64,000 bases of DNA from an uncultured bacterium (GTDB taxonomy: Bacteria > Krumholzibacteriota > Krumholzibacteriia > LZORAL124-64-63): positions 32,001 through 96,000 of the forward strand of contig CAVSZB010000005.1 of NCBI GenBank assembly GCA_963732385.1, written 5' to 3'. Positions 7,601-28,816 of this stretch are shown here, piece after piece. How positions within the stretch are numbered: the first letter of the stretch is position 1; every line of letters begins with the position of its first letter. Position numbers and translations under genes: made by a program. Below the pieces are notes generated by a model, which was not told where the DNA came from, did no database searches, and saw only the letters and a list, made by a program, of their open reading frames with translations.

Positions 7601-7622
7601 GCCGCCACCCCCCTGGCTTCTC

Positions 7623-9486: not shown

Positions 9487-9567
9487 CTTCGACTCCTTCG
9501 TGCGCAGCCGCTGCGGGAAGGGCCGGCGCGCGGTCCGTATGACCGGCGCGGCCTCGCCGCGCCAGAC

Positions 9568-10315: not shown

Positions 10316-12456
10316 TCAGGGCGCCGACAGTTCGAAGCGGATCCGGATCTCCTGGTTCTCGGCCAGCCTGACCTTCACCCGCCCCTCCCCCCCGCGCCGC
10401 GGCTGAAAGTCAGCGCGCCGCCATCGCCCGCGTTCTGGGCGCCGGTCACCACGTAGCCGGGGCAGCGCGCGCCGATCGTGTGCTCGCCCGCCTCCAGCTT
10501 CACCTGCAGGAAGGGGGTCTGCTGGCCGGTGTCGATCCCGTCGATCGTCACGAACGCGGCCGGGGTGGCGGCCACGCGCAGTGAGCCGGTCCGCTCGAGG
10601 AAGCGGTGGTGCCCCAGCGCGAGCGTCTCGCCGGCCGCGATCTGGAAAGCCGGCAGGTCGAGGCGCCCGTACGACGGTCGGTACCGCAAAGAGACGGCGT
10701 GACGCCCGGCGTTGGCGGCCATCACGGCGACCTTCGCCCCCTCCTTGACCAGCTTCCCGTCCAGATAGACGTCCGCGTACGGAGAGATCACCACCCGCGC
10801 GTAACCGCGGCCCGGCGTCGCCGCGACCGTGGCGGAAGCGGCAGGGGGGGCGGCCACCGGTCGTTGTTGCGCCGGCGCTGTCGTGGGCGCTGTCGTGGGC
10901 GCTGTCGTCGGCGCTGTGGTCGGCGCTGTGGTCGGCGGGGTCGACGCAGCCGGCGGCGGCGTCGACAGCGGCGCGTCGACCGGCGCTGCGGGCGCCGGCG
11001 TCGAAACCGCCACGGTGTCCGGCGTCACGCCCGTGCGCGCGAACCGCGGCACGGGAGAGAGCAGGCGGCCGCCGATCATGATCGCCGCGGCGGCCACGAC
11101 CACCAGCACGGCCGCGGCCGCCCAGCGCGAGCCGGGCGAGGCGAACCATGAGCGGAGGCTGCTGCCGGACCCGGCGCCGGCCGTGCGGCCGGCCTTCGGC
11201 GCCGCCGCCTTCGGTTCGGGCGGGCGCGCCCTGCCAGCGGTGCGGGAGGCGGGGGCTGCGGAGGCCTTGGGCATGACGAGCGTGCGGCCGGTGGCGTCCT
11301 CGTCGGCGCGGGCCGGGCGGGCGGCGACGGCGAGGCTCTGGCCCGATTCCTCCGCCCTGCGCTTCAGTTCGCTGATCGCCTCGCTGGCCTTGCTGTTCTG
11401 CGGGTCGAGCGAGAGGACGTAGTGGAACTCGCGGATCGCATCGCCGATGTTCTCGAGCCCCATGTTCTTGAAATGGAAGCCGGCGTTGAGGTGGGCCTTG
11501 ATGTTCTGGTGCCGCAGCTCCTCGGCGAACGCCATCGGCTCCTTGGCGAAACGGGCCAGGTAATCGCGGCGGTACTTGATCAGGGCGCCCGACCGGTCGA
11601 TGCTCTCCATGCACTCCTTGAGCGCCAGCAGCACCTGGTCCATGTTCTGGTAGCGCTTCGCCGGGTCCTTCGCGAGCATCTTCTCCATCAGGGACGAGAG
11701 CTCCGCGGTCAGCAGCGGGCAGGCTTCGCGGGTCAGCGGCGCCGGCGCGTCGTTGATGATCGACTCCTGCACGGATGTCGGCGTGTCCCCCTTGAACGGC
11801 TTCTCCCCGGACAGGAGCTGGTAGGCCATCACGCCGAGCGAGAAGATGTCCGTGCGATGGTCGAGGTCGTCCCGGCCCGCCGCCTGCTCCGGCGACATGT
11901 ACGACGGCGTGCCGACGACCATCCCCGGCAGCGTCAGGTTCTGGGCGGTCAGGCGCGCGAAGTCGCGGGTGTCGCGGGCGAGGCCGAAGTCGGCGATCTT
12001 GATCTCGCCGTCGTTGCTCAGCAGCACGTTGTTCGGCTTCATGTCGCGGTGGATGATGCCGGTCGTGTGGGCGGCCTTCAGGCCGTAGGCCACCTCTTCG
12101 AGGATCAGCAGCGCGATCTCGGCGGGCAGCGGCCGCGAGCGGCCGGCGGCCTTCTGGAAATCGGCGAACAGCTTCTGCAGATCGGGGCCTTCGATGTACT
12201 CCATGACGATGAAGTACATGTCGTCTTCGGAGCCGAAGTCGATCACGCGGGCGATGTTGTTGTTCTGCAGCGAGGAGGCGGCCCGCGCCTCACGCTCGAA
12301 GCGGGCGATGAAGCTTTCGTCTCCGGCCAGGCCGGGGTGCAGGACCTTGACGGCGACCGAATAGTGCAGCGTTCCGTGCAGTCCCCGGTAGACCGTGGAC
12401 ATGCCGCCGGAGCCGATCTTCTCCTTGATCTCGTAGCCGTGGAACGTCGCCCCCAC
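10316..12456 (-). CDS. Hanks-type Ser/Thr kinase 2 (kinase-TPR-TM-PEGA-like repeats); C-terminus frameshifted at a G7 run
   Basis: IGSGGMSTVY, VAVK, HRDMKPNN, DFG, GTPSYMSPEQ; TM; PEGA-like repeats. The ORF stops at 10375, but adding one G at 10387-10393 gives ...AGGEGRVKVRLAENQEIRIRFELSAP* ending at 10316, which parallels the paralog's C-terminus. Confidence 0.92.
10874..10937. repeat. 12-bp tandem repeat, about 5 copies, encoding a (PTTA)n linker
   Basis: GGCGCTGT(C/G)GT(G/C) repeated 5 times inside the extracytoplasmic linker of kinase 2. Confidence 0.9.
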
Positions 12457-12490
12457 GTCGCTCCCTCCCCCCTGTGCGGACGCCGTGCTG

Positions 12491-14875
12491 TCAGGTCCGC
12501 GGTTTCCGCTTCAACTGCAGGTCGATCTTCAACCGGTCCCCCTGCGCGATCGTCACGCGGAAGGAGGTGTACTTGCCGCCGGAGCTGAGCGGCGGGAGCT
12601 GTTTCTGGCTGCCGTCGGCGGCCACCTGCGACGCGGTCTGCACGGTGAAGTCGTCGCTGCGGACCGTCAGCGTATGCTCGCCTGGCTCGAGACGGCCCGT
12701 CCACGGCGTGTTGCCGACCCGCTCCTGATCGATGTCCAGCGGGACCGGATCGGTCGCCTCGATAGCCACCTCTCCGCCACTGAGCACCATCTCCAGCCGC
12801 ACGCCCAGGGTCTGCCCGCCGCTGATCCTCACCTTCTTCATGACCGGCGCGTAACCCGGCTTCTCGGCCCGCACCTCCCAGTTGTCCGCCGCGGTCAGTT
12901 CGGTGACCACCGGAGCGGTGCCGACCGGCCGCCACGGCTCCCCGGCCTGGCGCACCAGCACGGTGGCGCCGTCGGGCGTGACGCGCACGCGGATCCGGCC
13001 GCTGGAGCTCACCGCCGGCGCGGCCGCGGCCTCGCTCGGGGTCTCGGCGATCGTGGCCGGCGCCGGCACGGCAGCCGCGGTCCCGGGCGCGCCGGTGGCC
13101 GCGACAGCGGGCGTTTCGCCCTCTCCCTCCGGAACGAGCGCGCGCAGCTGTCCGCCCACGGAGGTCGTTTCACTCCCCGCCGCCGTCACGGCGAGCACCG
13201 TGTCCGCGTACCCCGCCAGCGACAGCCGGAACTCCCAGGCGCCGACCGCCAGGTCCGCCAGCACGCAGGCGGTCTGGCGACCGGTCGGGGTGAAATCGGC
13301 GGTGCCGGCCCGCCGCATCCAGACCTGCGCCCCTGCCGGCTCGCTGGCCACCTGTACGATCGCCGTGGCCGGCGGCGCGGTCGGGCCGCGCCGCGTGAGC
13401 AGGACCGCGGCCACCGCCACGATCACCACCGCTCCGAGCGCCATCGCCACCATGCCCCGTCGCCGGCGCAGCCCCTCCAGAATACCGGCCACGGGCGACG
13501 CGGCGGCGCGATCCGGCCGCGCCTTGCGCGGCTGACGCGGCTCCCGCGGCACACGCGGCGCACGCGGCGGCGGCGGCGCAGCCGCAGCCGGCTCCGGCGC
13601 GGGCGCCGCGACCGGCTCGGCGGCGCGCCGTGGCGGGCCGGCCGCCGGCATGACCATGGTGCGTCCCGACTCCACCGGGTCGGCGGCATCGACATCGTCG
13701 GGCTCGTGCGCGCCGAGCGGACCGGCGCCCGTGGGCGGGGGCGCGGCGCGCATCGTGACCCCTGAATCCTCGGCCCGCTTGCGCAGTTCGGCCAGGGCCT
13801 GCGAAGCCTTCGGGTTGCGCGGGTCGAGGCGCATGACGTGACGGAATTCGCGCAGCGCGTCGGACATGCTGGCCAGGCCGAGGTTCTTGAAGTGGAAGCC
13901 GAGCCGCAGGTGCGAGTTGATGGCCTGGTGGCGCAGATCATTGGCGGTGGCGGCCGGGTCCCGGGCGAAGCGCTGGAGCAGGTCGCGCCGCAGCTTCACC
14001 AGCCCGCCCGACGAGTCGATGCTGTCCATGCACTCCCGCAGCGCGTGCAGCACCTGGTCCATCGACTGGTACCGCTTGCCGGGATCCTTGGCCAGCATCT
14101 TGCTGACCATCTCCTCCATCTCGTTCGTCAGGAGCGGGCACGAGGTCTCGGCCAGCGGACGGGGCGAGGCGTTGATGATGCGCTCCTGCACCTCGGTCGG
14201 GCTGTCGCCCTGGAACGGCTTCTCGCCGGCGAGGAACTGGTAGGCCATGACGCCGAGCGAGAAGATGTCGCTGCGGTGATCGACGTCGTCCCGGCCGACC
14301 GCCTGCTCCGGCGACATGTACGAGGGGGTGCCGACGATCATGCCCGGGCGCGTCAGGTCGTCCGAGGCCATCCGCGCCTGGTCGCCCGTGTTGCGCGCGA
14401 GACCGAAGTCGGCCAGCTTCACCTCGCCGCGCCGGTCGATCAGGATGTTGCTCGGCTTGATGTCGCGGTGGACGACCCCCTCGGCATGCGCCTCGCGCAG
14501 CGCGTACGCCACCTCTTCGAGGATCAGCAGGGCGATCTCGGGCGGCAGCGGCTGGGCCGCGCCGCTCTCGGCGCGCAGCATCTCGAACACCTTGGCCAGG
14601 TCGGGCCCGTCGATGAACTCCATCACGATGAAGTAGCAGTCATCCTCGCTGCCGAAGTCGATGACCGAGGTGATATTGACGCTGCGCAGCGCCGAGGCCG
14701 CCTTGGCCTCCCGTTCGAAGCGCGCGATGAACTGCGTGTCGCCGGCGAGGCCGGGGTGGAGGATCTTGACCGCGACGGGATAGCCCAGCGTCGTGTGGAC
14801 CCCCTTGTAGACGGTCGACATCCCGCCCGCGCCGATCTTCTCGTGCACTTCGAAGCCGTGAAACGCTGTAGCCAC
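12491..14875 (-). CDS. Hanks-type Ser/Thr kinase 1 (kinase-TPR-TM-PEGA repeats)
   Basis: IGAGGMSTVY, HRDIKPSN, DFG, GTPSYMSPEQ; TM; VASEPAGAQV and VTPDGATV PEGA-like repeats; GTG start with GGAGG RBS. Confidence 0.94.
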   Translation of the reverse strand: MATAFHGFEVHEKIGAGGMSTVYKGVHTTLGYPVAVKILHPGLAGDTQFIARFEREAKAASALRSVNITSVIDFGSEDDCYFIVMEFIDGPDLAKVFEMLRAESGAAQPLPPEIALLILEEVAYALREAHAEGVVHRDIKPSNILIDRRGEVKLADFGLARNTGDQARMASDDLTRPGMIVGTPSYMSPEQAVGRDDVDHRSDIFSLGVMAYQFLAGEKPFQGDSPTEVQERIINASPRPLAETSCPLLTNEMEEMVSKMLAKDPGKRYQSMDQVLHALRECMDSIDSSGGLVKLRRDLLQRFARDPAATANDLRHQAINSHLRLGFHFKNLGLASMSDALREFRHVMRLDPRNPKASQALAELRKRAEDSGVTMRAAPPPTGAGPLGAHEPDDVDAADPVESGRTMVMPAAGPPRRAAEPVAAPAPEPAAAAPPPPRAPRVPREPRQPRKARPDRAAASPVAGILEGLRRRRGMVAMALGAVVIVAVAAVLLTRRGPTAPPATAIVQVASEPAGAQVWMRRAGTADFTPTGRQTACVLADLAVGAWEFRLSLAGYADTVLAVTAAGSETTSVGGQLRALVPEGEGETPAVAATGAPGTAAAVPAPATIAETPSEAAAAPAVSSSGRIRVRVTPDGATVLVRQAGEPWRPVGTAPVVTELTAADNWEVRAEKPGYAPVMKKVRISGGQTLGVRLEMVLSGGEVAIEATDPVPLDIDQERVGNTPWTGRLEPGEHTLTVRSDDFTVQTASQVAADGSQKQLPPLSSGGKYTSFRVTIAQGDRLKIDLQLKRKPRT

Positions 14876-14897
14876 GCCGCCTCCCTTTTCGTCCGGC

Positions 14898-15671
14898 TCA
14901 GGTCCGACTCTGCCGGGCCACCACGACCGTGATGTTGTCGGGGCCGCCCTCCTTGCGCGCCCGCTCCACGAGGAGCTGGCAGGCGCGCTGGGGCAGGTGC
15001 ATCGAGACGATGCGCAGGATTTCGGGGTCGTGAATCACTTTGATCAGGCCGTCCGAGCAGAGCACCAGCGTGGCCCCCTCGGCGAAGATGACCGGGTTGC
15101 CGATGTCCGGCTCCACGCCCTCCTCGTTGCCGAGCCAGCGCGTCAGGACGTTCGACAGGCTCTGCTTGTCGGGCGGCAGCGTCTGGCCCTGGCGCCGGTA
15201 CTCGCCGCCGAGCGAGTGGTCTTCGGTCAGCGGGAAGAGCTGCCCGTCGTGCGCGAGATAGGCGCGGCAGTCGCCGATGTGGCCGATCACCAGCTCCTGC
15301 CCGCGGACCACGGCGGCCGTGCAGGTCGTGGCCATGTTGGCGCGCAGCGGACTGGCGGCCGCATCGGCGAGGATGGCCCGGTTGGCCTCGAGCAGCGTCT
15401 CGTAGAGGGCCGCCCGCAGGTCGGTCGGCACGCCGGCGGCGAAGAAACGCTCGCCGAAGGTCTGCACCGCGATCCGGCTCGCCACCTCGCCCGCCGCGTT
15501 GCCGCCCACGCCGTCGGCCACGACGAGCAGCAGCGCCCCGGGCGCGGTGTCGCAGGTGAAGATGCCGACCGCGTCTTCGTTCTTCTCGCGCCGGCAGCCG
15601 ATGTCGCTGAGGCTGGCGTGCAGGAGTCGCAGGCCGGTGGCCGGTGACGTCGGCGGGCTGTCGTGGTTCAT
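14898..15671 (-). CDS. PP2C-family Ser/Thr phosphatase (PppA/Stp1-like)
   Basis: SDIGCRREKNED, VADGVGG, GEVAS, HIGDCRAY, LCSDGL, GGPDNITV; ATG overlaps the upstream stop (ATGA). Confidence 0.95.
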   Translation of the reverse strand: MNHDSPPTSPATGLRLLHASLSDIGCRREKNEDAVGIFTCDTAPGALLLVVADGVGGNAAGEVASRIAVQTFGERFFAAGVPTDLRAALYETLLEANRAILADAAASPLRANMATTCTAAVVRGQELVIGHIGDCRAYLAHDGQLFPLTEDHSLGGEYRRQGQTLPPDKQSLSNVLTRWLGNEEGVEPDIGNPVIFAEGATLVLCSDGLIKVIHDPEILRIVSMHLPQRACQLLVERARKEGGPDNITVVVARQSRT

Positions 15672-17041
15672 GAGCCTCCTCTGCGACCCGGGAGCGCGAG
15701 GCCCGCCGGACGCGTTGTCCTGCGATAGACGAGCCCGACCGCGCCGCCCAGGAGCACGCGATCGCCTTCGCCGATGGTGGCCGTCCGCACCGGCCGTTCG
15801 TTGACCTGCGTCCCGTTCGTCGAGCGCAGATCGGTGATGATGACCGCGCCCCGCCGCACCCGCAGCACCGCGTGCTGGCGGGAGACCCGCGGCTCCGCCA
15901 CGACGATCGTGTTGCCGGCCGCCGAGCCGATCGTGGCGCCCGAGCGCGGCAGGCGGTGCACGGTCTGGCGTCCGCCGGCCGTCACGACCAGTTCGCCGGC
16001 CGAGGCGAAGCGCAGCCGCGCCAGCACGACCGCCGCGACGATCAGCACCAGGGCCGCCAGCAGCAGCGCCGGCCAGCGGCCGATGCCGCGCTCGGCGAGC
16101 GCCCGGCGGGCGCGCAGCGTGCCGTCGGCCGCGAGCTCGCCGTCGGCGCGCGTCACGCGCAGCGTCACGTCGGCCGGCAGCCCCACGCCCGGCGCGGCAA
16201 ACCGCGCCGCCAGCGCGCCGTCGACGACGGCCACCAGCCGCCGCACCGCCATCCCGGCCTCGCCGGCGCCGGCGGTCAGCAGCCGGCCGCCGCTGCCGTC
16301 GGCCAGGCGCCGCAGCCGCGCCGCCTCGGCGCCCGCCGCGTCGGTATCGCCGAGCAGGACGACGTACACCGCCACCCGGGCCGAGTCGGCGGCCGCCAGG
16401 CAGCTCACCGACGAGTAGCGGCTGCCCTGCCCCTGCCGGCCGCTCGTCACCACGATGAGCGTCCGCCGCGCCGGCAGCTCCGGAAAGGCCAGCACGGCCA
16501 GCGCGTCCTTCACATTGTCCCACAACGGGACCGGCGTGTCGCCGGCGAGGTCGGCCGCGGCCGGCGGGCGGGCCGCTCCCGCGCCGCCGCCACCGCCCGG
16601 CGCCAGCCGCCGCAGCGCCCGCGGACGCGACCCCGTCGCATAGAGTCCGCGCCAGGCGTCGGGCGCGGCCTGCCCCGCGAACGCCGCCAGCGCCTCGCCG
16701 CAGGCCGCCACGGCGTCGGCGGGCAGGCCGCGCAGATCGGCCAGCACCGCCACCGCCGACGGCGCGCCGCCCGGAGCGGGGGCGAACGGCAGCAGCGTCG
16801 GCGCGCCCACCGGCCCGCCGCCCGCCGCGAGCGTCAGCGCCGCGGCCGGCACCGCCAGCGGCAGACCGCCGGCGTCGACCAGCGTGAACGGGAGCTGGTA
16901 CTGCCCGCCCGTCAGCGGCACGCCCGGCTCGAGCCGCAGCTCGGCCGCAACCCCCTGGGCCCGCGCGCCGCCCCCCGGCGCCAGCAGCGCAATCACGACG
17001 GCCGCCGCCCGCAGCGACCGGAATCCGCGGCGTGAAAGCAT
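15668..17041 (-). CDS. Membrane protein with an extracytoplasmic degenerate vWA-like domain, TM helix and cytoplasmic FHA domain
   Basis: Signal peptide; TPVPLWD...RRTLIVVTSG...VYVVLLG...LRRLADGSGG (vWA-like); TM; IGSAAGNTIV...VSRQHA...DLRSTNGTQVN (FHA). Confidence 0.8.
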   Translation of the reverse strand: MLSRRGFRSLRAAAVVIALLAPGGGARAQGVAAELRLEPGVPLTGGQYQLPFTLVDAGGLPLAVPAAALTLAAGGGPVGAPTLLPFAPAPGGAPSAVAVLADLRGLPADAVAACGEALAAFAGQAAPDAWRGLYATGSRPRALRRLAPGGGGGAGAARPPAAADLAGDTPVPLWDNVKDALAVLAFPELPARRTLIVVTSGRQGQGSRYSSVSCLAAADSARVAVYVVLLGDTDAAGAEAARLRRLADGSGGRLLTAGAGEAGMAVRRLVAVVDGALAARFAAPGVGLPADVTLRVTRADGELAADGTLRARRALAERGIGRWPALLLAALVLIVAAVVLARLRFASAGELVVTAGGRQTVHRLPRSGATIGSAAGNTIVVAEPRVSRQHAVLRVRRGAVIITDLRSTNGTQVNERPVRTATIGEGDRVLLGGAVGLVYRRTTRPAGLALPGRRGGS

Positions 17042-17140
17042 GTCCGCGCCGCCCCTCCCCACGGTACGACCAGGTGCGCCGGCGGGAGAATCCCGACCCG
17101 CGTGGCGGAGTCTAAGGCGCGGCGGCGGGCATCGCAATCG

Positions 17141-18934
17141 CTAGTCGACCGGCAGATCGAACTGCTGTGGGCAGCGCATCACCACGGCCGCGGCCAGGAA
17201 GCGCGACACGTACTCCCGCGTCTCCTGCGGCAGACACGGCGCGTCCTTGCGCACGAGGTCCCAGAACTTCCAGCGCGACCACCAGTCGATGTTCATGCGC
17301 CGCAGGCAGGCGCGCAGCCCGTTGTCGCCCTTGTTGTAGGCGGCCACCGCGCACATGCAGTCGTTGGAACCGTAGGCGATCATCAGGTCCTGCAGGTACT
17401 GGCAGGCCGCGGTCGTGGCCCGCACCGGGTCCTTGCGCTCGTCGACGGTGTCGTCGACCCGCAGGCCGTAGTCGCGGGCGGTGCCGCGCATGAGCTGCCA
17501 CATCCCCATCGCCCCGGCCGGACTCTCGATCTCGGCCTGGTAGCCGCTCTCGATGAACGGAAGGTAGCAGAAGGCCTGCGGGATCCCCTGCGCCTCGAGC
17601 TGCGAGCGCAGCATGTCCAGGTGCGGCCGCGCCCGGCGGAGCGTGCGCAGGGTGTAGTCGCGCCGGTCGACCGTCCACATCCGCACGGCGCCTTCCACCT
17701 CCGCCACCATCGTGCCCGGCAGCGCGTCCAGCCGCGTGTCGACCCCGAACTGGGCGAAGATCCGCGACAGCTCCTCTTCCAGGCTGAAGGCCGGCGGCGG
17801 CGGGACGGCCGGCGCCGTCTCCTCGGCCGCGGTCACCTCGGGTTCCGGCGGCGGAGGCGGCGGCGGCCGCCGCCCCTCGCGCAGCTCCTGCAGCAGCGCG
17901 AACGGATCGCGGTCCCGCAGCCGATCCCGGTCGATCCGCTTGGCGGTCTCGCGCAGCGCCTCCCGCACTTCGTCGTCGCTCTGCCGGTCGGGCGGCAGCC
18001 GGTCGGCCGCGATCAGCGAGCGGATGGCGATCTCGAACTGCGCCTTGGCCACGGTGTCGTTGGGCGGCGAAGCGTCGTAGGCCACGAGCGCGTCGTCGAG
18101 GCTGCGCCGCGCCTGCTCGACGTACATGTCTTTCGTCCAGAGCCGCTCCACCCGCTCGCCCGCCGGCCGCAGCGACGGCAGCAGCAGCACCCCCACCAGC
18201 ACCAGCGCCGCGATCCCCAGCACCATCGCCCCATGCACCGAAGGCACGGGACACAACTGCACGGTGAAGACGACATCGGCGAACCCGACCCGGTCCCCCA
18301 CCCGCAGTACCCGCTCCTTGACCGCCTCCCCGTTGACGGAAGTGCCGTTCCTGCTCCCGGCATCGGTGAGCAGCAGCCGGTCCCCCCGCCGCTCGATCCG
18401 CGCATGCACCCCCGAGATCTGCGCCAGCGGCAGCAGCAGATCGGCCCCCTCGTCCCGCCCGATCACGCTCAGCTTGCGCGCCAGCAGCAGCGAGGCTCCG
18501 CCCGCCCGCGTATCGCGCGACACCAGCCGCAGACAGAGCAGCCCCGCCGGATCAGGCAGCCGCCGCCCCGCCCCCCGCGCCCGCACCGGCCGCTCGAGCG
18601 AGAACACGAACTCCCGCTCCGGCCCCAGCCGCAGCACCGCGCCGTCCCGCAACGGCGCCCGCCCCACCCGCTCCCCGTCGACAAAGGTCCCGTTGGCGCT
18701 CCCCTGGTCCTCGACGAACCAGACCGCCCCCTCCTGCACCAGCTGCGCATGCCGCCGACTGAGCGCCGCATCGTCGATACAGAGATCGCACCCCGCATCC
18801 CGCCCGATCAGCAGCCGCCCCCCGGCCGGCACGCACACGTCGGCCCCGCCCGCCCGCGGACGCACCCGCGCCCCGCAGGCCGGCCGCGCCCCCGCGCGCC
18901 CCCCCGCTCTAAGTCCGCCGGAAGTGTCAGCCAT
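17141..18934 (-). CDS. FHA-FHA-TM-lytic transglycosylase (MltD-like SLT) fusion
   Basis: Two FHA domains (IGRD...LSRRHA...GSANGT; IGRD...ISGVHA...GSRNGT); TM; SLT motifs PFIESGY, AGAMGMWQLM, DERKDP, AAYNKG, ETREYV. Confidence 0.92.
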   Translation of the reverse strand: MADTSGGLRAGGRAGARPACGARVRPRAGGADVCVPAGGRLLIGRDAGCDLCIDDAALSRRHAQLVQEGAVWFVEDQGSANGTFVDGERVGRAPLRDGAVLRLGPEREFVFSLERPVRARGAGRRLPDPAGLLCLRLVSRDTRAGGASLLLARKLSVIGRDEGADLLLPLAQISGVHARIERRGDRLLLTDAGSRNGTSVNGEAVKERVLRVGDRVGFADVVFTVQLCPVPSVHGAMVLGIAALVLVGVLLLPSLRPAGERVERLWTKDMYVEQARRSLDDALVAYDASPPNDTVAKAQFEIAIRSLIAADRLPPDRQSDDEVREALRETAKRIDRDRLRDRDPFALLQELREGRRPPPPPPPEPEVTAAEETAPAVPPPPAFSLEEELSRIFAQFGVDTRLDALPGTMVAEVEGAVRMWTVDRRDYTLRTLRRARPHLDMLRSQLEAQGIPQAFCYLPFIESGYQAEIESPAGAMGMWQLMRGTARDYGLRVDDTVDERKDPVRATTAACQYLQDLMIAYGSNDCMCAVAAYNKGDNGLRACLRRMNIDWWSRWKFWDLVRKDAPCLPQETREYVSRFLAAAVVMRCPQQFDLPVD

Positions 18935-18936
18935 GA

Positions 18937-19899
18937 TCACGTCGCCGCAGGCAGCGGGAAACACCGGAAGAGGAACCGCGTGCCCCCCATCTGCACCCGG
19001 TCACCATCGCGCAGCGCCTGCTCGGTAATCCGCACGTCGTTCACGAGCGTCCCGTTGGTGGAGTTGAGGTCCCGCAGCACGTACTGCCCCCCCCCGAACA
19101 CCACCTCCGCATGCCGACTGGAAAGGAACCGATCATCCCCGATGATGACATCGCACCCCGCCACCGACCCGAAGCGAAGGGTCCCGGCCGTCAACCGAAA
19201 GTCCCGCCCCCGCTGCGCCCCACTGACAGCCACGAGCCACGCCACCAACTCCTGCCGCCCCACCGGACTCATGAGGACAGCCGTCTTGTCGAGATCGTCC
19301 ACCGTCATCGCCCCCGGCGCCGCCACCGGCACCACAGGAGGAGGAGCAGCAGGAGGCGCAGGCGGCACATAGGCCGGAGGAGCCAGCAGGCGCAGCAGGA
19401 GCCGCCGGCGGAATGACCGGCCGCGCCCCGATCACCGTGATGTCATCCCCGCCCCCACCGGGTCCCCCCACCCCCGGCCCCGTCGGCACCCGACGGATCG
19501 GTTCGGAAACCGGCCGCGCCACCGGCGCATGCTCGATCCGCCGCACCGGCTCCGGCGCCCGCTGAAAAGGTTGAGGAGCAGGCGGCACCGCGCCAAGGGA
19601 GGAGGCGCAGCAGGAGCAGCCGGACAGCAGGAGCAGCCGGCCAAGTCGGCGGCCCCGCCGCCGGCGGCAGGAGACGTATAGGCAGGAGCCCCAGCCCCCG
19701 CATGAGGCGCCGGCGGCATCGGCTCCGCCGCCCGAGCCCCCCGCCCCGCCGCCGAACTCCCCCGCTCGTCATCTACAGGGATGAAATCCCCGCTAAGATC
19801 GCTCCCCCCCTCACAATAAGGACAGCTATCCCAAGACGGATCCAGGAGATGCCCGTTCGCACAATGCCGCACCTTGTTCTTCCGCTTCCCGAACAGCAT
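18937..19899 (-). CDS. Zn-ribbon, Pro-rich linker and FHA protein; broken across three reading frames
   Basis: N-terminal CANGH...CPYC; linker pieces in ORFs 19432-19929 and 19133-19588; C-terminal FHA in 18937-19368 (VAWLV...GRDFRL...LSSRHA...DLNSTNGT); GGAG RBS before ATG at 19899. Confidence 0.8.
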
Positions 19900-19965
19900 G
19901 CTCCCCCATCTCCCCCGCAGGACGGCCAAGCCAGCTAACTTTGTGGCTTGAGAAGGGTTCGGGGC

Positions 19966-19996
19966 AGTCTACCAACGGGGGTGCGGGGATTGTCAA
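19966..19996 (-). promoter_or_regulatory. Candidate sigma70 promoter for the FHA/kinase/tssJKLM operon
   Basis: Minus strand: TTGACA (19996-19991), a 19-nt spacer, then extended -10 TGgTAGACT (19974-19966), about 65 nt upstream of the first ATG. The spacer is longer than the usual 17 nt. Confidence 0.5.
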
Positions 19997-20339
19997 CTTA
20001 CTGGGCGGAGGACTTGTTCCCAACCCAGCTTCGATCGTAAGGCCGGCGGGCAGCGTGCTCTCGCCATTTATTGCCCAGGACGCTGCTAGGATTGCCGAGA
20101 TGGCTTCGAGTCACCCGTCCGCAAGCACTTCAACACGCTGATGGCCGTGCTCATGTCGAGCCGGAACATCTGCGGAACGCAAAGCCCCAGCCAACCTACG
20201 AGGGCAGTTGATTGCAGCCAGCCCTATAGATTTACACTGCCATGCGCTTAGACTATGCTGGTTCAGCCTTGTGGGCCAGGGGGGCCAGCGGGCTCCGTTG
20301 CAGTCACCTGATTCATGTTAACCACCGTGGGAGTGGGCA

Positions 20340-21056
20340 GTGTTTCATTGGATGATGTCGCCGCTTTCCCGACATGTCGACGGGGGCTTCGGCGCCATCG
20401 GAGACGCCTACAAGCGCGCCGCCGACAACCTGGATGAACCCGCTTCCTTAGCGAACCCGAATGGCCACTTGCCGGTGAACTTTTTGCGCCGGCATGCGAT
20501 CGAGCTCTTCCTCAAATCGATGATTATGGTGCTGCATCGTTGCTTGAGCGATCCGCAAGACGAGCGCGACGGAGATGCAATGCCGGAAATACAGGTCGAT
20601 GGTCGGTCGACACCCCTGTCACGCATCCATCGTATCCAGGCGCTTTTCGACTACTTTATGCAGTTGGCTACGTCTAACCGAGATCGATTTCTGGATGCCG
20701 ACAAGACGGACTGGGCTAAAGTTCCGAGCGAGCTCGCCGGCTGGATAGCCGCGATTGAACGAGCAGACGCATCAAGTACTTTCTTCCGCTATCCTGAGCC
20801 GCCCAACCGTGCCGCCGTGACAGACAAGTCCGCATGGCGCGAGGTGCATCCGGAAGACATCGATGCACGGCTGAGCAGGCCAGGTCGTAGCCCTACTGGG
20901 CTCTTCATTCTCATGGGCGAGGACGAATGCGTGCGGCTTGCTTGCGCGCACGAAGGACTTCCGCTCCAGGAACTGTCATTGTCGCTGAAGCAGGCCACCG
21001 AGATGTTGTCAGGCGCTCATATCGGACTTAGGGCCGAACTTGCAGGAGGGTGGTAG
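20340..21056 (+). CDS. HEPN-superfamily-like protein
   Basis: AYKRAAD...PVNFLRRHAIELFLK...H-I--LF...STFFRYP pattern; lower GC than the flanks. Confidence 0.6.
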   Translation: MFHWMMSPLSRHVDGGFGAIGDAYKRAADNLDEPASLANPNGHLPVNFLRRHAIELFLKSMIMVLHRCLSDPQDERDGDAMPEIQVDGRSTPLSRIHRIQALFDYFMQLATSNRDRFLDADKTDWAKVPSELAGWIAAIERADASSTFFRYPEPPNRAAVTDKSAWREVHPEDIDARLSRPGRSPTGLFILMGEDECVRLACAHEGLPLQELSLSLKQATEMLSGAHIGLRAELAGGW

Positions 21057-21297
21057 TGGCCGAGAATAGCAGCATCAACGAACCGAAGGCACCGCCAGGC
21101 GATTGACCTGCGCCAGGCCAGCGCCAATCCGGCTTCGCAAGCCTTTCTTGCGAGCCATTCGCTACGTAGGTCAGAACAAGCAGAGTACCACAACCGCCCT
21201 TCGCGAATGTAAGTGCTGACATCGCAAATTACGGCGGCAGCCACCAAGTTGGATGGAATCCCGCAATCCAACAGGCACCATTCAAGGAGCATGCTGA

Positions 21298-22395
21298 GTG
21301 GAGATCGCAAAGAAACTGACTCCCACCACAAAAACTATCGACGAACTAACCGAATTGTTCGACAACGGGCGCCTCGACCTAACGCCGGACTTTCAGAGAA
21401 ACTCCGTCTGGCCTGGCCCGGCTAAAGCATATCTTGTCGACACCATCCTCAACGACATGCCAATCCCCCTCCTCTTCCTCACTCGAGAGAAGGACACCAA
21501 TTCCAATCGCCTTCGATACCGTGTGATTGACGGGCAACAAAGAATTCGTGCCGCCATGGCTTTTCTTCACAATAGGTTCCCGATACCAAATCAATATAAC
21601 CTTCAGCGCCCCAACGGCACCAAGTTCAAGCGCGTCCGGTTCCGCAATCTCTCTGAAGCGCTCAAGGAGCGCTTCATTGGGTACAGCTTCGTTGTATCTG
21701 AGCTAAGCGGATTCACGGATGAGGAGTTGCGGGACATATTTGTTCGAATCAACAAGTATGTAGTGCGCCTCAATCCCCAGGAGTTGCGGGACGCAAAGGC
21801 ACCAGGCCCCTTTAGGCACTTCATCGACCAGTGTTCGCAGCGTGACATCTGGAACAAGGTCGGCATTTTCACTGGCAAGAATCGCGACCGGAAGCGCGAC
21901 AAGGAGTTCATCGCTGAGTTGGCGATTCTTCTTCTCGATGGGCCGCAAGACAAGAAGGGCTCACTCGATCTCTATTACGCAGCAGTGCCCGATCAATTTT
22001 CTGGCGACGACCTCCAAGATGACCTTATCGGAACGGCCGAGACGATTCACCAGTTGCTAGGAGCAAGCCCCCCTTCAACTCTAATTCGCCTACCTGTGTT
22101 TTATGGGCTGGTCGGCGCAATCTACAATATTCGATCAGACGAGGACGATGCGAAGAGGCTAGATGCGTCACTAACGGAAGCATATGATGCACTGGAAGAA
22201 TTGTCCGACTTGGCAGATGACGTCGCTAAGGATGGTGCGGTTCCACCGGCAGACCTCACAGAGGAAGCGAAAGCCCGCCGCACTGACGCAGGGATATTTC
22301 GTCGTTCCATCAGCCAGCAGACCGACAATGTTCGGCCTCGCACTGCGTGCATCGAGGTCCTTGAGCGCGTGATTCGATCTGCATTCGTTGAGTAG
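21298..22395 (+). CDS. DUF262 (ParB/Srx-fold, GmrS-like) protein without an HNH/DUF1524 domain
   Basis: PDFQRNSVW, LVDTIL..MPIP, VIDGQQR, IFVRIN...LNPQELR. Confidence 0.9.
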   Translation: MEIAKKLTPTTKTIDELTELFDNGRLDLTPDFQRNSVWPGPAKAYLVDTILNDMPIPLLFLTREKDTNSNRLRYRVIDGQQRIRAAMAFLHNRFPIPNQYNLQRPNGTKFKRVRFRNLSEALKERFIGYSFVVSELSGFTDEELRDIFVRINKYVVRLNPQELRDAKAPGPFRHFIDQCSQRDIWNKVGIFTGKNRDRKRDKEFIAELAILLLDGPQDKKGSLDLYYAAVPDQFSGDDLQDDLIGTAETIHQLLGASPPSTLIRLPVFYGLVGAIYNIRSDEDDAKRLDASLTEAYDALEELSDLADDVAKDGAVPPADLTEEAKARRTDAGIFRRSISQQTDNVRPRTACIEVLERVIRSAFVE

Positions 22396-22400
22396 ATGTC

Positions 22401-23396
22401 GTGCAAGACTTCATCAATCGTTACGAAGAAACCAGAGACCGCTTGGAAAGGGCAGCCCCTCGTCTTGAGGAGCAGTTAAAGACTGCTCTAAGAGATCACC
22501 GCATTCTCTTTCTTGCGGTTTCTGTACGCGTGAAGACTCTCGAGTCGGCGCTGCGCAAAATCAGCAAGAAGAAGTACAGCGATCCCTGGCAACAGATGAT
22601 GGACTTGATCGCTGGGAGAATCTTTACCTATTTTCGACCGGACGCCACCCAAGTGGAATCAGTTATCAGAGACTATTTTGATGTTCACGAGGAACACTCC
22701 AAGAACAAGTCAGATGATCTTGAATTCAACAAGTTCGGCTACACATCCAGACACTTGGTATGTTCTCTGCGCGAGCGGTTTCCCGACCTTCGATTGAAGT
22801 CTCTAATTCCGGAAGGGATGATGTTCGAGCTTCAGATCCGATCCGTCCTTGAACATGGATGGGCTGAGATAGAGCACGAACTGGTCTACAAGTCCGGTAC
22901 GGAACCTCCAGACGCTATCCGAAGAAGATTTGCTGCCTCTGCGGCCGCACTGGAAATAGTCGAGCGCGAGTTCGACAGCCTTCGCGACTTTGAATTTCAA
23001 ATGGCGGTGGATAGGTCGTTAGTCATTTCTGGCAATCTTGGTGCTCCCCTAGATAGGGCTTGGTTTATCGCCGTGCTGATGCGGGAATATCCTAGTCGCA
23101 GCACTTGGAGTCCCGATCCGCAGAAGAATGTCTTCTTCCGCAGTTATGAGCTCGTGCTCATCGAATCGCTTCGAGCGGTCGGTGTATCTACTGTTCGGGA
23201 CTTTCTCAACAGGCTTCGCAAGCCAAAGCCTAGAAGAATGGTTCGCGAGTACGCTAAGAAGCGAGGGATACTCGAGGCCGACGTTTCTCATCTTCCAATC
23301 GCGATCTTCGCGACGTTTTATGACTCTGCGATCTCCATACCTGGAGAAATCAAACAAGTTGCTGACTCCACCATGCGCGAGCTACTGGCTTTATAG
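22401..23396 (+). CDS. RelA/SpoT-domain small alarmone synthetase with a C-terminal extension
   Basis: RVKTLESALRK, DLIAGRI, GYTSRHLV, ELQIRSVLEHGWAEIEHELVYK; no HD hydrolase domain; starts 5 nt after the DUF262 stop. Confidence 0.9.
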   Translation: MQDFINRYEETRDRLERAAPRLEEQLKTALRDHRILFLAVSVRVKTLESALRKISKKKYSDPWQQMMDLIAGRIFTYFRPDATQVESVIRDYFDVHEEHSKNKSDDLEFNKFGYTSRHLVCSLRERFPDLRLKSLIPEGMMFELQIRSVLEHGWAEIEHELVYKSGTEPPDAIRRRFAASAAALEIVEREFDSLRDFEFQMAVDRSLVISGNLGAPLDRAWFIAVLMREYPSRSTWSPDPQKNVFFRSYELVLIESLRAVGVSTVRDFLNRLRKPKPRRMVREYAKKRGILEADVSHLPIAIFATFYDSAISIPGEIKQVADSTMRELLAL

Positions 23397-23480
23397 CGGA
23401 GAAAGCCCCCACACGTGGTGCGAGGAGCTGCCTCACTCTACGATCGGCTCCTGAGGTGGAACCGTGTCCTCGCGGCATAA

Positions 23481-23990
23481 GATCTCTCTGGAGGCCTGCT
23501 TGAAACGAACCAGACGATCGGGCAGTCGCTGGGGCTGACGGCAAGGCAGATGCGGATCGGGCGGGTGACGGTGGCCATGCGGTACGAGGCGAAGGGTGGG
23601 GAGTATTCGCGGAAGTTCAGCCACTATGAGATCTCGCAGCAGCTCAAGTTCATCGAGGAGGATGTGGCGCGGTACGATGAGTTTCGGGAGGTGCTCCTGG
23701 GAGTGCCGGGGTTGCAGGTGAATCAAGAGTTCGAGGCGAGCGGGGCGGAGTCGGCGAAGAACGACATGATGATCGAGGCACTGCGGTCGGCCAGACGGAA
23801 GGCGGAGGCGCTGGCGGCGGTCGTGGGAGCCAATGTCGGGCGGGCGATTTCGATCAGCGAGTTCAAGCCCAATCCGACGGATCGCGACATCGACACCGTG
23901 GCCTTTCTGCGCGGAGTGCCGTTCCGCGGCCCCGAGCCGGACGGGATCGAGATCCGGGGGCGGATCTACGCCGTGTTCGAACTCGAGTAG
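23481..23990 (+). pseudogene. 5'-truncated copy of the SIMPL/DUF541 gene
   Basis: Near-identical to the 3' part of 25887-26570; in-frame TAA at 23478-23480; no signal peptide. Confidence 0.75.
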
Positions 23991-23998
23991 GCAGCGGG
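23546..23998 (+). repeat. 453-bp direct repeat, copy 1
   Basis: Matches 26126-26578 at an offset of 2580; I counted 3 mismatches (23571, 23834, 23960). Confidence 0.95.
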
Positions 23999-24068
23999 CG
24001 GCGTCGCTGCCCGATCTGGTGATCTTGCCGGCAGGAGCGGACGGCGGACATTCCAAGGAGGGCACGGC

Positions 24069-25769
24069 ATGACCGCCGAGGAGCTCGCGAGGCTGATCGA
24101 GGCCGGCGAAACGCTTGCGATCGAGTTCAAGGGCGAGGAGCGTGAGGGCCTCTCGGATGCCGAACTGGTGGAGACGGTTGTCTGCCTCGCCAACAGGCCG
24201 GGTGGTGCCGATGCAGCATGGTTGCTCGTCGGCGTCGAGGACGACGGCCGCGTGACGGGCGCGCGCCGGCGACATGCCGACCGCACCGATCCCAATAGGC
24301 TGCAGGCACTTGTGGCGAACCGGACGAGGCCGGCGCTGTCGGTGCGAGTTGACGTGATCGATATCGAGGGCAAGCAAGTCGTTGTCATCGACGTGCCTTT
24401 CGCCCGCTCGCCGGTCGGGACGACGGATGGCAAGTACGTGCGCCGGGCGCTGGGCGGCGACGGTCGACCGGCATGCGTGCCCATGCACTTTCACGAGATG
24501 CAATCGCACCAGGCCGATCGCGGCCTGCTCGATCATTCCGCGCTCGCGCTGCCGGACGCTCGCTGGCAGGATCTCGACCCGCTCGAATTCGAGCGTTTTC
24601 GCCGCTTCGTGCGCGAGAGTCAGGGCCGAGGCGATGCGAGCCTCGTGGAGTTGGCGGATATCGAGCTTGCCAAGGCGCTGGGCGCCGTGCAGGCCAACCA
24701 TGACGTGTCTGCCGTGCACGTGCTTGGCCTGCTGCTCTTCGGCCGCGAAGAGGCGCTGCGCCGGCTGCTGCCGACTCATGAGGTCGCCTTCCAGGTTCTG
24801 TCGGGCCAGAAGGTGGAGGTCAACGACTTCTTCCGCTGGCCGCTGCTGCGTGTCGTGGATGAGCTGCTGGCGCGATTCCGGGCTCGCAATCGGGAGGAAG
24901 AACTGCTGGTCGGCATGCTGCGGATCGCCGTGCCCGATTACGCCCCCGCTGCCTTTCGGGAGGGGGCTGCGAACGCCCTGATCCACCGCGACTACACTCG
25001 GCTCGGCGCCGTGCATGTGCAGTGGCGCGAGGACAGCATCGAGATCGCCAATCCCGGAGGCTTCCCGGAGGGGGTCCGCCTCGACAATCTGCTGGTCACC
25101 CAGCCGCGGCCCCGCAATCCCCTCCTGGCCGATGCGTTCAAGCGCGCCGGCATCGTCGAGCGCACCGCTCGTGGCATCGACACCATCTTCCACGAGCAGC
25201 TTCGCAACGGCCGTCCGGCGCCGAACTACGGGCGCAGCAACGAGAGCGGGGTCGTGCTTGTCCTGCCGGGTGGCAAGGCCAATCTGGCCTTCGCGCGTCT
25301 CGTCGCCGAAGAGAGCCAGGCCGCCCGCCCCCTGTCCTTGGATGACCTGTTGCTCCTCAACCACCTCTGGCTGGAGCGCCGCCTGAGTACGACCGAGTCC
25401 GCAGTGCTGATACAGAAACCCGAGGCGGAGGCGCGGACCCGCCTTCAGCGCCTGGTCGAAGCGGGACTCGTCGAAGCGCGCGGCGAGCGCAAGGGCCGGA
25501 CCTGGCACCTCTCGGCTCCCGCCTACCGGCGCCTTGGGGAGCCTGGCGCCTACGTCCGCCAGCGCGGATTCGAACCGCTCCAGCAGGAGCAGATGGTGCA
25601 GCAATTCGTGGAAAAGCACGGTTCCATCAGCCGCGCCCAGGTGGCCGAGCTTTGCCGGCTCACCCCTCCGCAGGCCTATCGATTGCTCCAACGGCTTGCA
25701 AAGAAAGAACTTCTGTCTCGGCTGGGCTCTCGGGGGCGGGCCGTCCGCTACGGGCTGAAGGCACGATGA
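24069..25769 (+). CDS. AlbA_2 (Schlafen-like)-HATPase_c_4-wHTH protein, often annotated 'RecG-like' or transcriptional regulator
   Basis: GETLAIEFK, VCLAN..GG, LLVGVEDDG; FREGAANALIHRDY, IANPGG, PRNPLLA, VERTARGI; C-terminal HTH ISRAQVAELC. Confidence 0.88.
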   Translation: MTAEELARLIEAGETLAIEFKGEEREGLSDAELVETVVCLANRPGGADAAWLLVGVEDDGRVTGARRRHADRTDPNRLQALVANRTRPALSVRVDVIDIEGKQVVVIDVPFARSPVGTTDGKYVRRALGGDGRPACVPMHFHEMQSHQADRGLLDHSALALPDARWQDLDPLEFERFRRFVRESQGRGDASLVELADIELAKALGAVQANHDVSAVHVLGLLLFGREEALRRLLPTHEVAFQVLSGQKVEVNDFFRWPLLRVVDELLARFRARNREEELLVGMLRIAVPDYAPAAFREGAANALIHRDYTRLGAVHVQWREDSIEIANPGGFPEGVRLDNLLVTQPRPRNPLLADAFKRAGIVERTARGIDTIFHEQLRNGRPAPNYGRSNESGVVLVLPGGKANLAFARLVAEESQAARPLSLDDLLLLNHLWLERRLSTTESAVLIQKPEAEARTRLQRLVEAGLVEARGERKGRTWHLSAPAYRRLGEPGAYVRQRGFEPLQQEQMVQQFVEKHGSISRAQVAELCRLTPPQAYRLLQRLAKKELLSRLGSRGRAVRYGLKAR

Positions 25770-25886
25770 AAACACACATCGTGGCACAGAAACGCACGCG
25801 TGCATTGAAAACGCACGAAGTCGACAATGCGGCGCAATGGGCGAGCGCGCATTTGGACGCACCTCCTCGCCCAAAGGAGAATCGCC

Positions 25887-26570
25887 ATGCGATCCCTGTC
25901 ATTCCTGATTCTGCTGGCGTGCATCGTGACAGCCCCGACTCTGGCTTCGAGCGCCGGGACCATCACCGTCATGGGCGACGCGTCGACGGTGGTCGGCGCG
26001 GACCGCGTCATCTGGAAGCTGTCGGTGACGACGAAGGACACGAAGCTGGAGCAGGCGACGGCGCAGGCTGATGGGCTGCTGTCCCAGGCGGTGACTATCG
26101 GGGAGTCGCTTGGGCTGGCGAAGGAGCAGATGCGGATCGGGCGGGTGACGATGGCCATGCGGTACGAGGCGAAGGGTGGGGAGTATTCGCGGAAGTTCAG
26201 CCACTATGAGATCTCGCAGCAGCTCAAGTTCATCGAGGAGGATGTGGCGCGGTACGATGAGTTTCGGGAGGTGCTCCTGGGAGTGCCGGGGTTGCAGGTG
26301 AATCAAGAGTTCGAGGCGAGCGGGGCGGAGTCGGCGAAGAACGACATGATGATCGAGGCACTGCGGTCGGCCAGACGGAAGGCGGAGGCGCTGGCGGCGG
26401 TCGTGGGAGCCAAGGTCGGGCGGGCGATTTCGATCAGCGAGTTCAAGCCCAATCCGACGGATCGCGACATCGACACCGTGGCCTTTCTGCGCGGAGTGCC
26501 GTTCCGCGGCCCCGAGCCGGACGGGATCGAGATCCGGGGACGGATCTACGCCGTGTTCGAACTCGAGTAG
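25887..26570 (+). CDS. SIMPL/DUF541 (YggE-like) exported protein
   Basis: AAGGAG RBS; signal peptide; TITVMGDA...AD; EALRSARRKAEALA...VGRAISISE; C-terminal VFELE. Confidence 0.85.
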   Translation: MRSLSFLILLACIVTAPTLASSAGTITVMGDASTVVGADRVIWKLSVTTKDTKLEQATAQADGLLSQAVTIGESLGLAKEQMRIGRVTMAMRYEAKGGEYSRKFSHYEISQQLKFIEEDVARYDEFREVLLGVPGLQVNQEFEASGAESAKNDMMIEALRSARRKAEALAAVVGAKVGRAISISEFKPNPTDRDIDTVAFLRGVPFRGPEPDGIEIRGRIYAVFELE

Positions 26571-26578
26571 GCAGCGGG
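26126..26578 (+). repeat. 453-bp direct repeat, copy 2
   Basis: Matches 23546-23998. Confidence 0.95.
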
Positions 26579-26580
26579 AC

Positions 26581-26802
26581 ATGGCACGCAAGGGATTCCA
26601 TAAGGCGCAGAAGAGCATCGAGGTCTCGGTCGGGGAATCGGTACGTATCATTCGGGAGTTGCAGGAGCTGAGCCAGAATGAGCTGGCAGAGCTTTCTGGA
26701 ATTCCGCAGTCGACGATTTCTGCGATCGAGAACGATCGTGTCAGTCTTGGCAATGATCGACGCCCAGGGCGCGGCCCCCCAACGTGGCTCGCAGCAGGTT
26801 GA
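26581..26802 (+). CDS. XRE-family HTH protein, probably C-terminally truncated
   Basis: VGESVRIIRELQELSQNELAELSGIPQSTISAIEND, followed by an abrupt non-HTH tail. Confidence 0.7.
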   Translation: MARKGFHKAQKSIEVSVGESVRIIRELQELSQNELAELSGIPQSTISAIENDRVSLGNDRRPGRGPPTWLAAG

Positions 26803-26889
26803 TTCCCTGAGCACTTGAACATCGGCTTTACCCGCACCGCCAGGAATCGATGAGGCGCTGCCCCAGCCGCTACAGAGACGGGAGGTTCC

Positions 26890-27978: not shown

Positions 27979-28024
27979 GTGATCCCCGTGGTCCGCTCCC
28001 CCACGCCCGCCCCTGATCCGGCGA

Positions 28025-28816
28025 TCACTCCGGGATCATTCGGGGCAGCACGCCTCCGGGGCGGCCGAAGTGGGGAACGGTGTCGCCTCCATCCACCGGG
28101 TCGGGGCTCACGAAATTTCGTTTCGAAGCTGAGAAGTACAGGCATCCGGATTCGGCCGGCGGGCGACTCCGCACGAAGGCCTCGGCCTCCTGCAGCGCAG
28201 CGATCCAGGTCGCCTTGAGCTGGACGAGGTCGATCGGGACCGCCAGATCGAGGTGCGCCAGGTCCTCCGGCCGGACCCTGCCCCGTCGTCGGAGCATCTC
28301 CAGCAACGAGAGCGGCGCGTAGCCGGGGTCCTTGCCCACGGCGGCCCACACCAGGGCTCCGAGCGGCAGGACGTTTTCGTGCAGATAGACGGTGTCGAGC
28401 AGGTCCCGCGGTTCGTCGCGCCCGGCGAGGGCCAGGACCTTGTTGGTCGCCAGATCGATCGGGTGGAGCTGGTAACCGAACTCGTCACTGCGCATGACCG
28501 GCATGAAACGCCAGGCCGAGTCCTGGGCCCACTCGATTTTCGTCGCGGTCTCGCCCTGGCAGACGATGGCTCGGATATGGCCCGGCTGGCTGATCTCCGT
28601 TTCCACATTGTAGCCGTTCGCCACGAGGGTGCCGTGATCAGCCGCGAAGGCCGAGGCCACGCGGACGGCGCTGTCGTGGAAGTAGTCGAGGTCGTGGCTG
28701 AATCGGTGGGTGTTGGGGGCCACCAGAATGGCCGCCGCACCGGCGAGATAGCTGTGCTCACTGCGGTTCGTCGCGAGCAGGCGTCCCAGCCGGGCCTGGA
28801 AATCAGTCAGCGGCAC
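28025..28816 (-). CDS. AbiEii/AbiGii-family nucleotidyltransferase toxin
   Basis: YLAGAAAI...HRFSHDLDYF; DLATNKVLALAGRDEPRDLLD. Confidence 0.75.
   Translation of the reverse strand: MPLTDFQARLGRLLATNRSEHSYLAGAAAILVAPNTHRFSHDLDYFHDSAVRVASAFAADHGTLVANGYNVETEISQPGHIRAIVCQGETATKIEWAQDSAWRFMPVMRSDEFGYQLHPIDLATNKVLALAGRDEPRDLLDTVYLHENVLPLGALVWAAVGKDPGYAPLSLLEMLRRRGRVRPEDLAHLDLAVPIDLVQLKATWIAALQEAEAFVRSRPPAESGCLYFSASKRNFVSPDPVDGGDTVPHFGRPGGVLPRMIPE

Follow-up and report, generated by a model that had tools for sequence, protein, structure and literature searches.

A candidate sensor-effector pair in which a ParB-like DUF262 protein precedes a RelA/SpoT synthetase with a private C-terminal domain

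What does a DUF262 protein without a nuclease domain do when the next gene encodes an alarmone synthetase? We address this question for two genes in the window (the whole 64,000-nt stretch of DNA that we analyzed). As an earlier note on this DNA had described, the two reading frames are 5 nt apart, on the same strand, and poor in GC (52.0%, versus 68.7% for the genome). Only 5 of 1814 non-overlapping 2.1-kb segments of the genome have GC as low as this, and each of the two genes is present in one copy.

Table 1. Features of the locus and its surroundings. Coordinates are positions within the 64,000-nt window.
Feature	Position	Strand	Description
Left flank	10375..19929	-	two Ser/Thr kinases, PP2C-type phosphatase, FHA-domain proteins, lytic-transglycosylase-like gene (names read off translations, no family scan)
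Upstream ORF	20340..21056	+	238 aa; 58% GC
Ribosome-binding-site-like AAGGAG	21284..21289	+	8 nt ahead of the DUF262 GTG start (sequence)
ParB-like DUF262 gene	21298..22395	+	365 aa; GTG start; predicted sensor
RelA/SpoT synthetase gene	22401..23396	+	331 aa; predicted effector
RelA/SpoT synthetase domain	22401..23000	+	about residues 1-200 of the 331-aa protein; catalytic motifs all intact
Private helical C-terminal domain of the synthetase	23001..23396	+	about residues 201-331; predicted regulatory
Direct repeat	23513..23998 and 26093..26578		487 nt, 97.7% identity; the copies are a SIMPL (DUF541) gene truncated at its 5' end and a whole one
Schlafen-AlbA_2/HATPase/HTH gene	24069..25769		between the repeat copies
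AbiEii-like nucleotidyltransferase	28025..28816	-	Pfam E = 6.4e-5; short ORF upstream; adjoins rsgA

The region bounded by the FHA/kinase gene cluster on the left and rsgA on the right is a variable slot. Besides the pair, it contains the Schlafen-AlbA_2 gene, the duplicated SIMPL fragment, and, upstream of the pair, an unclassified ORF (Table 1). A genome from the same genus (G040, 62% complete) keeps both flanks with different cargo between them, and another genome (G039) has yet other cargo upstream of its rsgA, including a DpnII-MboI-type nuclease gene. The AbiEii-like nucleotidyltransferase is found in both of these genomes as well. The upstream ORF had no match in Pfam, PADLOC, or NCBIfam. 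It contains a pattern (RHAIELxLK...FRYP) that presumably resembles HEPN-type proteins. It has no similarity to the HEPN-like partners described below (probability 0.1), and it is not kept alongside the pair in other loci. No RNA families were found within positions 19500-28000, and a scan for promoters and terminators gave signals that did not clearly exceed those from shuffled sequence.

The only Pfam match of the first protein is GmrSD_N/DUF262 (E = 1.1e-20, residues 17-166). No DUF1524 or HNH domain was found in Pfam at E ≤ 0.1, so the nuclease-less architecture read earlier from the translation holds. The N-terminal, NTPase-type domain has the three motifs of ParB-DUF262 proteins as given in the text available to us of PMC12065111: QRxxxW (residues 33-38), an intact DGQQR (78-82), and FxRxN (148-152). 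The predicted structure (pLDDT 91) is all-helical beyond residue 140, and the helical C-terminal domain contains the motifs GPQDKK (215-220) and QQTDNxxPR (340-348). The model matches the fold of BrxU (Foldseek E = 1.2e-4; Z = 9.1, rmsd 9.1 over 298 aligned residues, where the high rmsd reflects a different placement of the domains), PadC (Z = 8.2, rmsd 3.0 over 99 residues), SspE, and ParB-family proteins. In PADLOC, its best match is NsnA of the Menshen system (E = 5.5e-37), followed by PD-T4-2_A (E = 3e-21; this match spans residues 16-207 only, so it indicates a homolog and does not imply the same subfamily).

The second protein's only Pfam match is RelA_SpoT (PF04607; E = 3.8e-18, residues 43-167), and Pfam found no HD hydrolase domain. 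In an alignment of 103 relatives, at least 100 share each of the following residues: R43, K45, S49, K53, D68, R73, Y114, H118, E143, Q145, R147, W154, H159, Y163, and K164. The model (pLDDT 96) is closest in fold to RelQ (5dec; Z = 18.5, rmsd 2.6 over 178 residues) and RelP (Z = 18.4), with rmsd of 2.5-2.6 for the two, and more distant from Tas1 (Z = 11.8), CapRel (11.5), and FaRel (8.2). Pfam, the alignment, and the RelQ/RelP match agree with the earlier note that the synthetase motifs are intact, that there is no hydrolase domain, and that about 130 extra residues follow at the C terminus. Judged by its fold, the enzyme is more likely of the (p)ppGpp type than of the CapRel/FaRel type, with the caveat that fold similarity does not fix the substrate. 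We predict that the product is probably (p)ppGpp; tRNA pyrophosphorylation and (pp)pApp synthesis are both unlikely, to about the same degree. By eye, the motifs are most like the fabRel rows of dataset S5 of Jimmy 2020 (9 of the 12 places shown), a likeness and no formal classification. PADLOC's PDC-S33, a single-gene RelA/SpoT entry, matches the second protein weakly (E = 3.1e-8), with positions 50-175 of the 349-position model covered. The match is stronger for three relatives of the synthetase (E about 1e-13 to 2e-14), again in the synthetase part only, and neither our protein nor these three gave a full-length match.

Is the pairing conserved? A scan of GTDB with the DUF262 alignment alone gave 51 genome loci, and in 39 of them a synthetase gene lies directly downstream, far beyond chance. 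The conserved adjacency that the earlier note had proposed to look for is supported. The spacing is -14 to +14 nt in 38 of the 39 pairs; the other (L043) is decayed. The pairs cover 8 labelled phyla and come mostly from environmental MAGs, with a few from cultured Actinomycetota, and the three NTPase-domain motifs occur without exception (38 of 38 pairs). Clustering the neighbours over 62 loci identified no third conserved gene. Indirect evidence from a protein database agrees: 11 of 16 synthetase relatives share the size of their longest contig with a top DUF262 relative, and of the other five, four are on contigs of under 1.8 kb and one has no contig listed. Among 201 genomes sampled from the host phylum, just one has the pair. 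The DUF262 profile matches only the host genome and G188, which has a more distant DUF262 gene followed by a HEPN-like ORF.

We also considered that these might be unrelated island genes that are adjacent by chance, or the remnant of a Menshen system, given that NsnA is the best PADLOC match of the first gene and that the locus is a variable slot with other cargo. However, the gene order is kept across different genomic contexts, and no NsnB-like ATPase follows the DUF262 gene. We consider this explanation hardly credible, and the conservation counts refute it.

The remaining 12 of the 51 loci have a gene for a protein of 200-250 amino acids in the synthetase's slot. The nine of these alternative partners that we aligned share an invariant Rx4H. 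Pfam gave a sub-threshold hit to PF18735 for one of the nine (E = 0.12); this is the HEPN family given for PD-T4-2 in the accessible text of PMC10952713. The one partner that we tried in an Atlas look-alike search was placed with a RiboL-PSP-HEPN cluster (score 0.93; PF18735 on 28% of its members). We call these partners HEPN-like because of the Rx4H, the PF18735 hint, and the Atlas look-alike. In a quick tree of DUF262, the synthetase-linked proteins (47 rows) and the HEPN-linked proteins (12 rows) are split across one branch with support of 93. On this sequence evidence, a single DUF262 lineage appears to work with two kinds of partner, HEPN-like genes and synthetases, and such a choice of partners is the hallmark of a modular sensor. 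Separately, the HEPN-linked sister loci (L047-L051, L036, L040-L042, L044-L046 (about 9010-9760), and L169), whose partners were unrecognised by PADLOC and Pfam, are likely to be unlisted PD-T4-2-like systems; one HEPN-linked group is at a conserved site in Dehalococcoidia.

The sister clade also bears on what the DUF262 protein does. The earlier note had it as either a sensor/antitoxin or a nucleotide-turnover partner. The QDKK and QTDN motifs are common to the five nearest HEPN-linked DUF262 proteins, so these motifs belong to the sensor and not to the handling of alarmones. Because the nearest kin are coupled to HEPN-like genes and have the same C-terminal motifs, a swappable sensor is favoured, and the turnover role is disfavoured. 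In its specific form, the turnover role would be a type IV-like antitoxin, with DUF262 destroying the alarmone or draining its substrate. DUF262 domains are described as promiscuous NTP hydrolases (PMC10952713, in the text available), and we found no conserved hydrolase or other third gene near the pair. But HEPN-linked sisters without any synthetase have identical NTPase and C-terminal motifs, and direct contact would better explain why the synthetase has a private regulatory domain. We consider the type IV-like arrangement very unlikely.

That private domain, which begins near residue 200 where the structural match to RelQ and RelP stops, is predicted to be helical. Residues 201-331 have no Pfam match, and the best Atlas score, 0.79, is a lead only. 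Our fold searches used the whole synthetase; the matches are dominated by the synthetase domain, and they give no evidence of a new fold for the C terminus. Residues 201-331 have a net charge of +6 and the family median is +2 (n = 103; this is overall charge, not surface charge). We built a profile of the domain (residues 203-331) from 60 family members. It matches 93 of 147 newly listed representatives at 50% identity, so the family is diverse. (Matches to the paired sequences are circular, since the profile derives from them.) Among 80 metagenome loci that were chosen by their synthetase, 9 have the private domain, and 7 of these 9 have DUF262 upstream. As for the other two, L070 has just 109 nt of upstream sequence and L058 is 5'-truncated. 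The synthetases without the private domain never have DUF262 (0 of 71, or 0 of 53 where at least 1.2 kb lies upstream). The private domain tracks with DUF262 and is nearly confined to synthetases that are encoded behind it. We predict that it is the regulatory part of the enzyme and probably the site of contact with DUF262. In a tree of the synthetase domain that was built with a fast method, the paired enzymes form two well-supported groups that mirror two DUF262 subgroups; they were not recovered as one clade (2 changes, weak backbone).

Related synthetases also occur without such a partner. In 71 viral or prophage contigs (L170-L240), the synthetases are 350-390 amino acids long and belong to the same broad lineage, and they have a different C-terminal region: the private domain was found in 0 of 71 and DUF262 in 0 of 71. 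Two other proteins stand out by their domains. P0163 (528 amino acids) has two tandem RelA/SpoT domains. P0185 (1475 amino acids) combines a TIR domain, a weak SAVED match, and two RelA/SpoT synthetase domains, and is a possible further immune use of this synthetase lineage.

Do the two proteins touch? A complex prediction scored 0.42, versus 0.00 for the best of 3 controls. At least 91% of contacts were the same between runs, with partner pLDDT of at least 83 and no interface output. Of 157 solved complexes, 116 reached the mark that we used for this score, as did 2 of 215 mismatched pairs; among those at 0.60 or lower were 18 solved complexes and both mismatches. The modelling thus hints, weakly, at a contact between DUF262 and the synthetase. 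The distance matrices of the two proteins are correlated (Mantel r = 0.72, n = 36, 0 of 2000 permutations), as expected for any linked genes. As a candidate for proof of interaction, we considered P0100, an in-frame fusion of DUF262 and the synthetase (617 amino acids; 3 of the 9 members of its cluster are fused), and rejected it. The fusion lacks the last helix of DUF262 and the N terminus of the synthetase, so it carries little weight. Because these parts are missing at the junction, and because the one 379-aa member of the cluster that we examined has an intact synthetase start, P0100 is probably a deletion allele or an assembly artefact. No longer fused forms (658-2000 amino acids) were found at E ≤ 1e-30, although this is weak evidence.

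A contact could have either sign, and the gene order fits an antitoxin followed by a toxin equally well. Under type II toxin-antitoxin logic, the synthetase would be active on its own and DUF262 would inhibit it until a phage cue (DNA or nucleotide) arrives; the pair would still serve defence or addiction, with the opposite sign of control. The tight bicistron with the partner first does resemble the validated toxSAS modules (PMC7229694, as far as its accessible text goes), the weakly predicted contact would suit an inhibitor, and the private domain is hardly ever seen in a synthetase that lacks DUF262 as a neighbour. However, this DUF262 lineage also serves an unrelated, HEPN-like partner. 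Furthermore, 2 of 38 loci (L031 and L037) have a frameshifted DUF262 gene with an intact synthetase, although sequencing indels are possible, and neither DUF262 nor ParB is mentioned in the main text of the two surveys of toxSAS antitoxins that we searched. We view inhibition by DUF262 as unlikely.

The pair behaves as mobile cargo, sporadic and foreign in composition. Its GC content is below that of the flanks in all 37 loci with enough flanking sequence (median difference of -10 points), and the gap exceeds 3 points in 35 of the 37. We found no copy of the pair in viral contigs, 0 of 768 matches in plasmid records covered 80% of DUF262, and the phage collection gave three matches to the synthetase, all partial. 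Many pairs stand alone amid housekeeping genes.

The earlier note had also proposed a search for enrichment in defence islands, and such enrichment was borne out only in part. We took the two nearest ORFs on each side of the pair, scored them as positive if PADLOC gave E ≤ 1e-10, and used as controls stretches from 20 of the 38 genomes with pairs, at coordinates that we picked arbitrarily by hand. The raw counts (17 of 143 neighbours, versus 8 of 139 for the controls) do not differ significantly (Fisher p = 0.093). After matches to generic helicases, ABC, SMC, AAA, HTH, and similar proteins were removed, by eye and post hoc, 9 of 38 loci have a defence neighbour, versus 1-2 of 40 control anchors (p = 0.006-0.023; 2 of the 9 loci are near-identical, and kin are not independent). 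The remaining neighbours are type I and type II methyltransferases, DUF4917 (twice), ApeA, a DRT-type reverse transcriptase, BREX, an AriA/PtuA-like ATPase, and a CAP12-type TIR protein. Overall, the enrichment is modest.

Since most loci have no defence neighbour and the raw enrichment is not significant, the pair might instead be a mobile stress or dormancy module. DUF262 would then respond to damaged DNA or to the nucleotide state of the cell and adjust (p)ppGpp within a signalling, non-lethal range. The fold, which is nearest to the non-toxic RelQ and RelP, would suit this as well. On the other hand, the pair is sporadic, low in GC, and recently moved in nearly every host, and the sister systems have a HEPN-like gene. 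All of the DUF262 systems covered in the accessible part of the review PMC10952713 are defence systems, and Pag1B, as described in the preprint text that we could consult (bioRxiv 10.64898/2026.04.06.716658), demonstrates that a maker of (p)ppGpp can serve as an abortive effector. A stress module strikes us as quite improbable.

Instead, with somewhat more confidence than doubt, we propose that the two genes form a sensor-activated, abortive anti-phage module whose effector has been swapped. DUF262 would bind DNA via its helical C-terminal domain and sense phage-altered DNA; candidate triggers are modified DNA, degradation of the genome, or a shift in the nucleotide pool. NTP turnover at DGQQR would act as the switch, as in BrxU and SspE. 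Once activated, DUF262 would contact the synthetase, probably at the latter's private C-terminal domain, and relieve its inactive state, in the way that Pag1A acts on Pag1B. The freed synthetase would flood the cell with (p)ppGpp, and the infection would be aborted. We infer DNA binding, the NTP switch, the contact, and the release by analogy to BrxU, SspE, and PANGU type I. According to the accessible text of PMC10952713, Menshen and Dazbog depend on their DUF262 NTPase domains, and in BrxU and SspE such domains gate the effectors. In PANGU type I, as described in the text that we had of its preprint (bioRxiv 10.64898/2026.04.06.716658), the DNA-binding Pag1A activates Pag1B, which makes (p)ppGpp, via a C-terminal domain, and this leads to abortive infection. 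More speculatively, the proteins of a single nuclease-less ParB-DUF262 lineage may sense DNA, with NTP as the switch, and directly turn on one of two effectors: a HEPN RNase or, via a dedicated new adaptor domain, an alarmone synthetase; we find this general scheme plausible and hold it more tentatively.

If this proposal is correct, then the pair is a second, unrelated route from a DNA sensor to an alarmone effector, beside PANGU, and its private domain is a new regulatory domain for RelA/SpoT enzymes. Recognition of foreign or damaged DNA would be coupled straight to the stringent response by a plug-and-play sensor platform. PD-T4-2, Menshen, and Dazbog, which have nuclease-less DUF262 proteins, protect against phage, and their sensing and signalling are open questions in the accessible text of PMC10952713 and PMC12065111. 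Here, the enzyme that the putative sensor is coupled to should make a nucleotide that is easy to measure, so two proteins would be enough for an in vitro screen for the trigger.

Has this pairing been described? In PADLOC 2.0, the pair matched no named system, in keeping with the earlier note, which did not recognise it as a named system. We did not find a pairing of DUF262 with an alarmone synthetase in the literature that we searched, which included PMC10952713, PMC3710099, PMC11782079, PMC10440598, PMC12839542, PMC9519451, PMC12065111, PMC7229694, and bioRxiv 2024.01.29.577857. DUF262 appears twice in five supplementary files of Jimmy 2020 (PMC7229694), in incidental rows of the sheet of RelP neighbours. 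The pair is a real, conserved, and apparently undescribed combination of known parts.

Several known systems share some of these parts. Like GmrSD, BrxU, and SspE, the first protein is a DUF262 protein with DGQQR, and BrxU and SspE are among its top fold matches; unlike them, it has no DUF1524 HNH domain, and the effector is encoded by a separate gene. NsnA of Menshen NsnABC is also a ParB-DUF262 protein with the three motifs and a helical C-terminal domain (PMC12065111, text available), but in the window and in the 39 pairs, the synthetase comes directly after DUF262, and there is no NsnB ABC ATPase or NsnC nuclease. (As a separate observation, the viral contig L132 has, at 3872-10078, a distant DUF262 gene followed by an AAA-ATPase-like gene and another gene, in a layout that looks Menshen-like by eye.) PD-T4-2 is likewise a two-gene system with a nuclease-less DUF262 first (system: PMC9519451; domains: PMC10952713; accessible text of both), and its layout of DUF262 plus a HEPN-like gene is found in the sister clade. 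In our pair, however, the second gene is a RelA/SpoT synthetase (PF04607) and not a PF18735 HEPN RNase.

On the effector side, the toxSAS enzymes (FaRel, FaRel2, PhRel, PhRel2, and CapRel; PMC7229694 and PMC11782079) and RelQ/RelP also have an intact synthetase without a hydrolase, and a conserved bicistron. But the partner here is a 365-aa NTPase-type protein, which is none of the antitoxins described in the text of those papers available to us, and the toxSAS structures are more distant in fold than RelQ and RelP. PANGU type I, as far as its preprint's accessible text describes it, is a bicistron with a small alarmone synthetase that has an extra C-terminal domain, and it has a DNA-binding partner and modular effectors (Pag1A/Pag1B), to which we liken our pair by predicted roles. 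There are differences: the PANGU sensor is YejK-like and nucleoid-associated, whereas our first protein matches only GmrSD_N in Pfam, and the C-terminal domain of Pag1B is an acidic DNA mimic, whereas the private domain is net positive. The PANGU synthetase is of the GRel subfamily; the motifs here look fabRel-like by eye, which is no formal assignment. The pair lacks defining features of Menshen, PD-T4-2, GmrSD, and PANGU. In its way of working, it most plausibly comes closest to PANGU type I with a sensor of the PD-T4-2/Menshen type.
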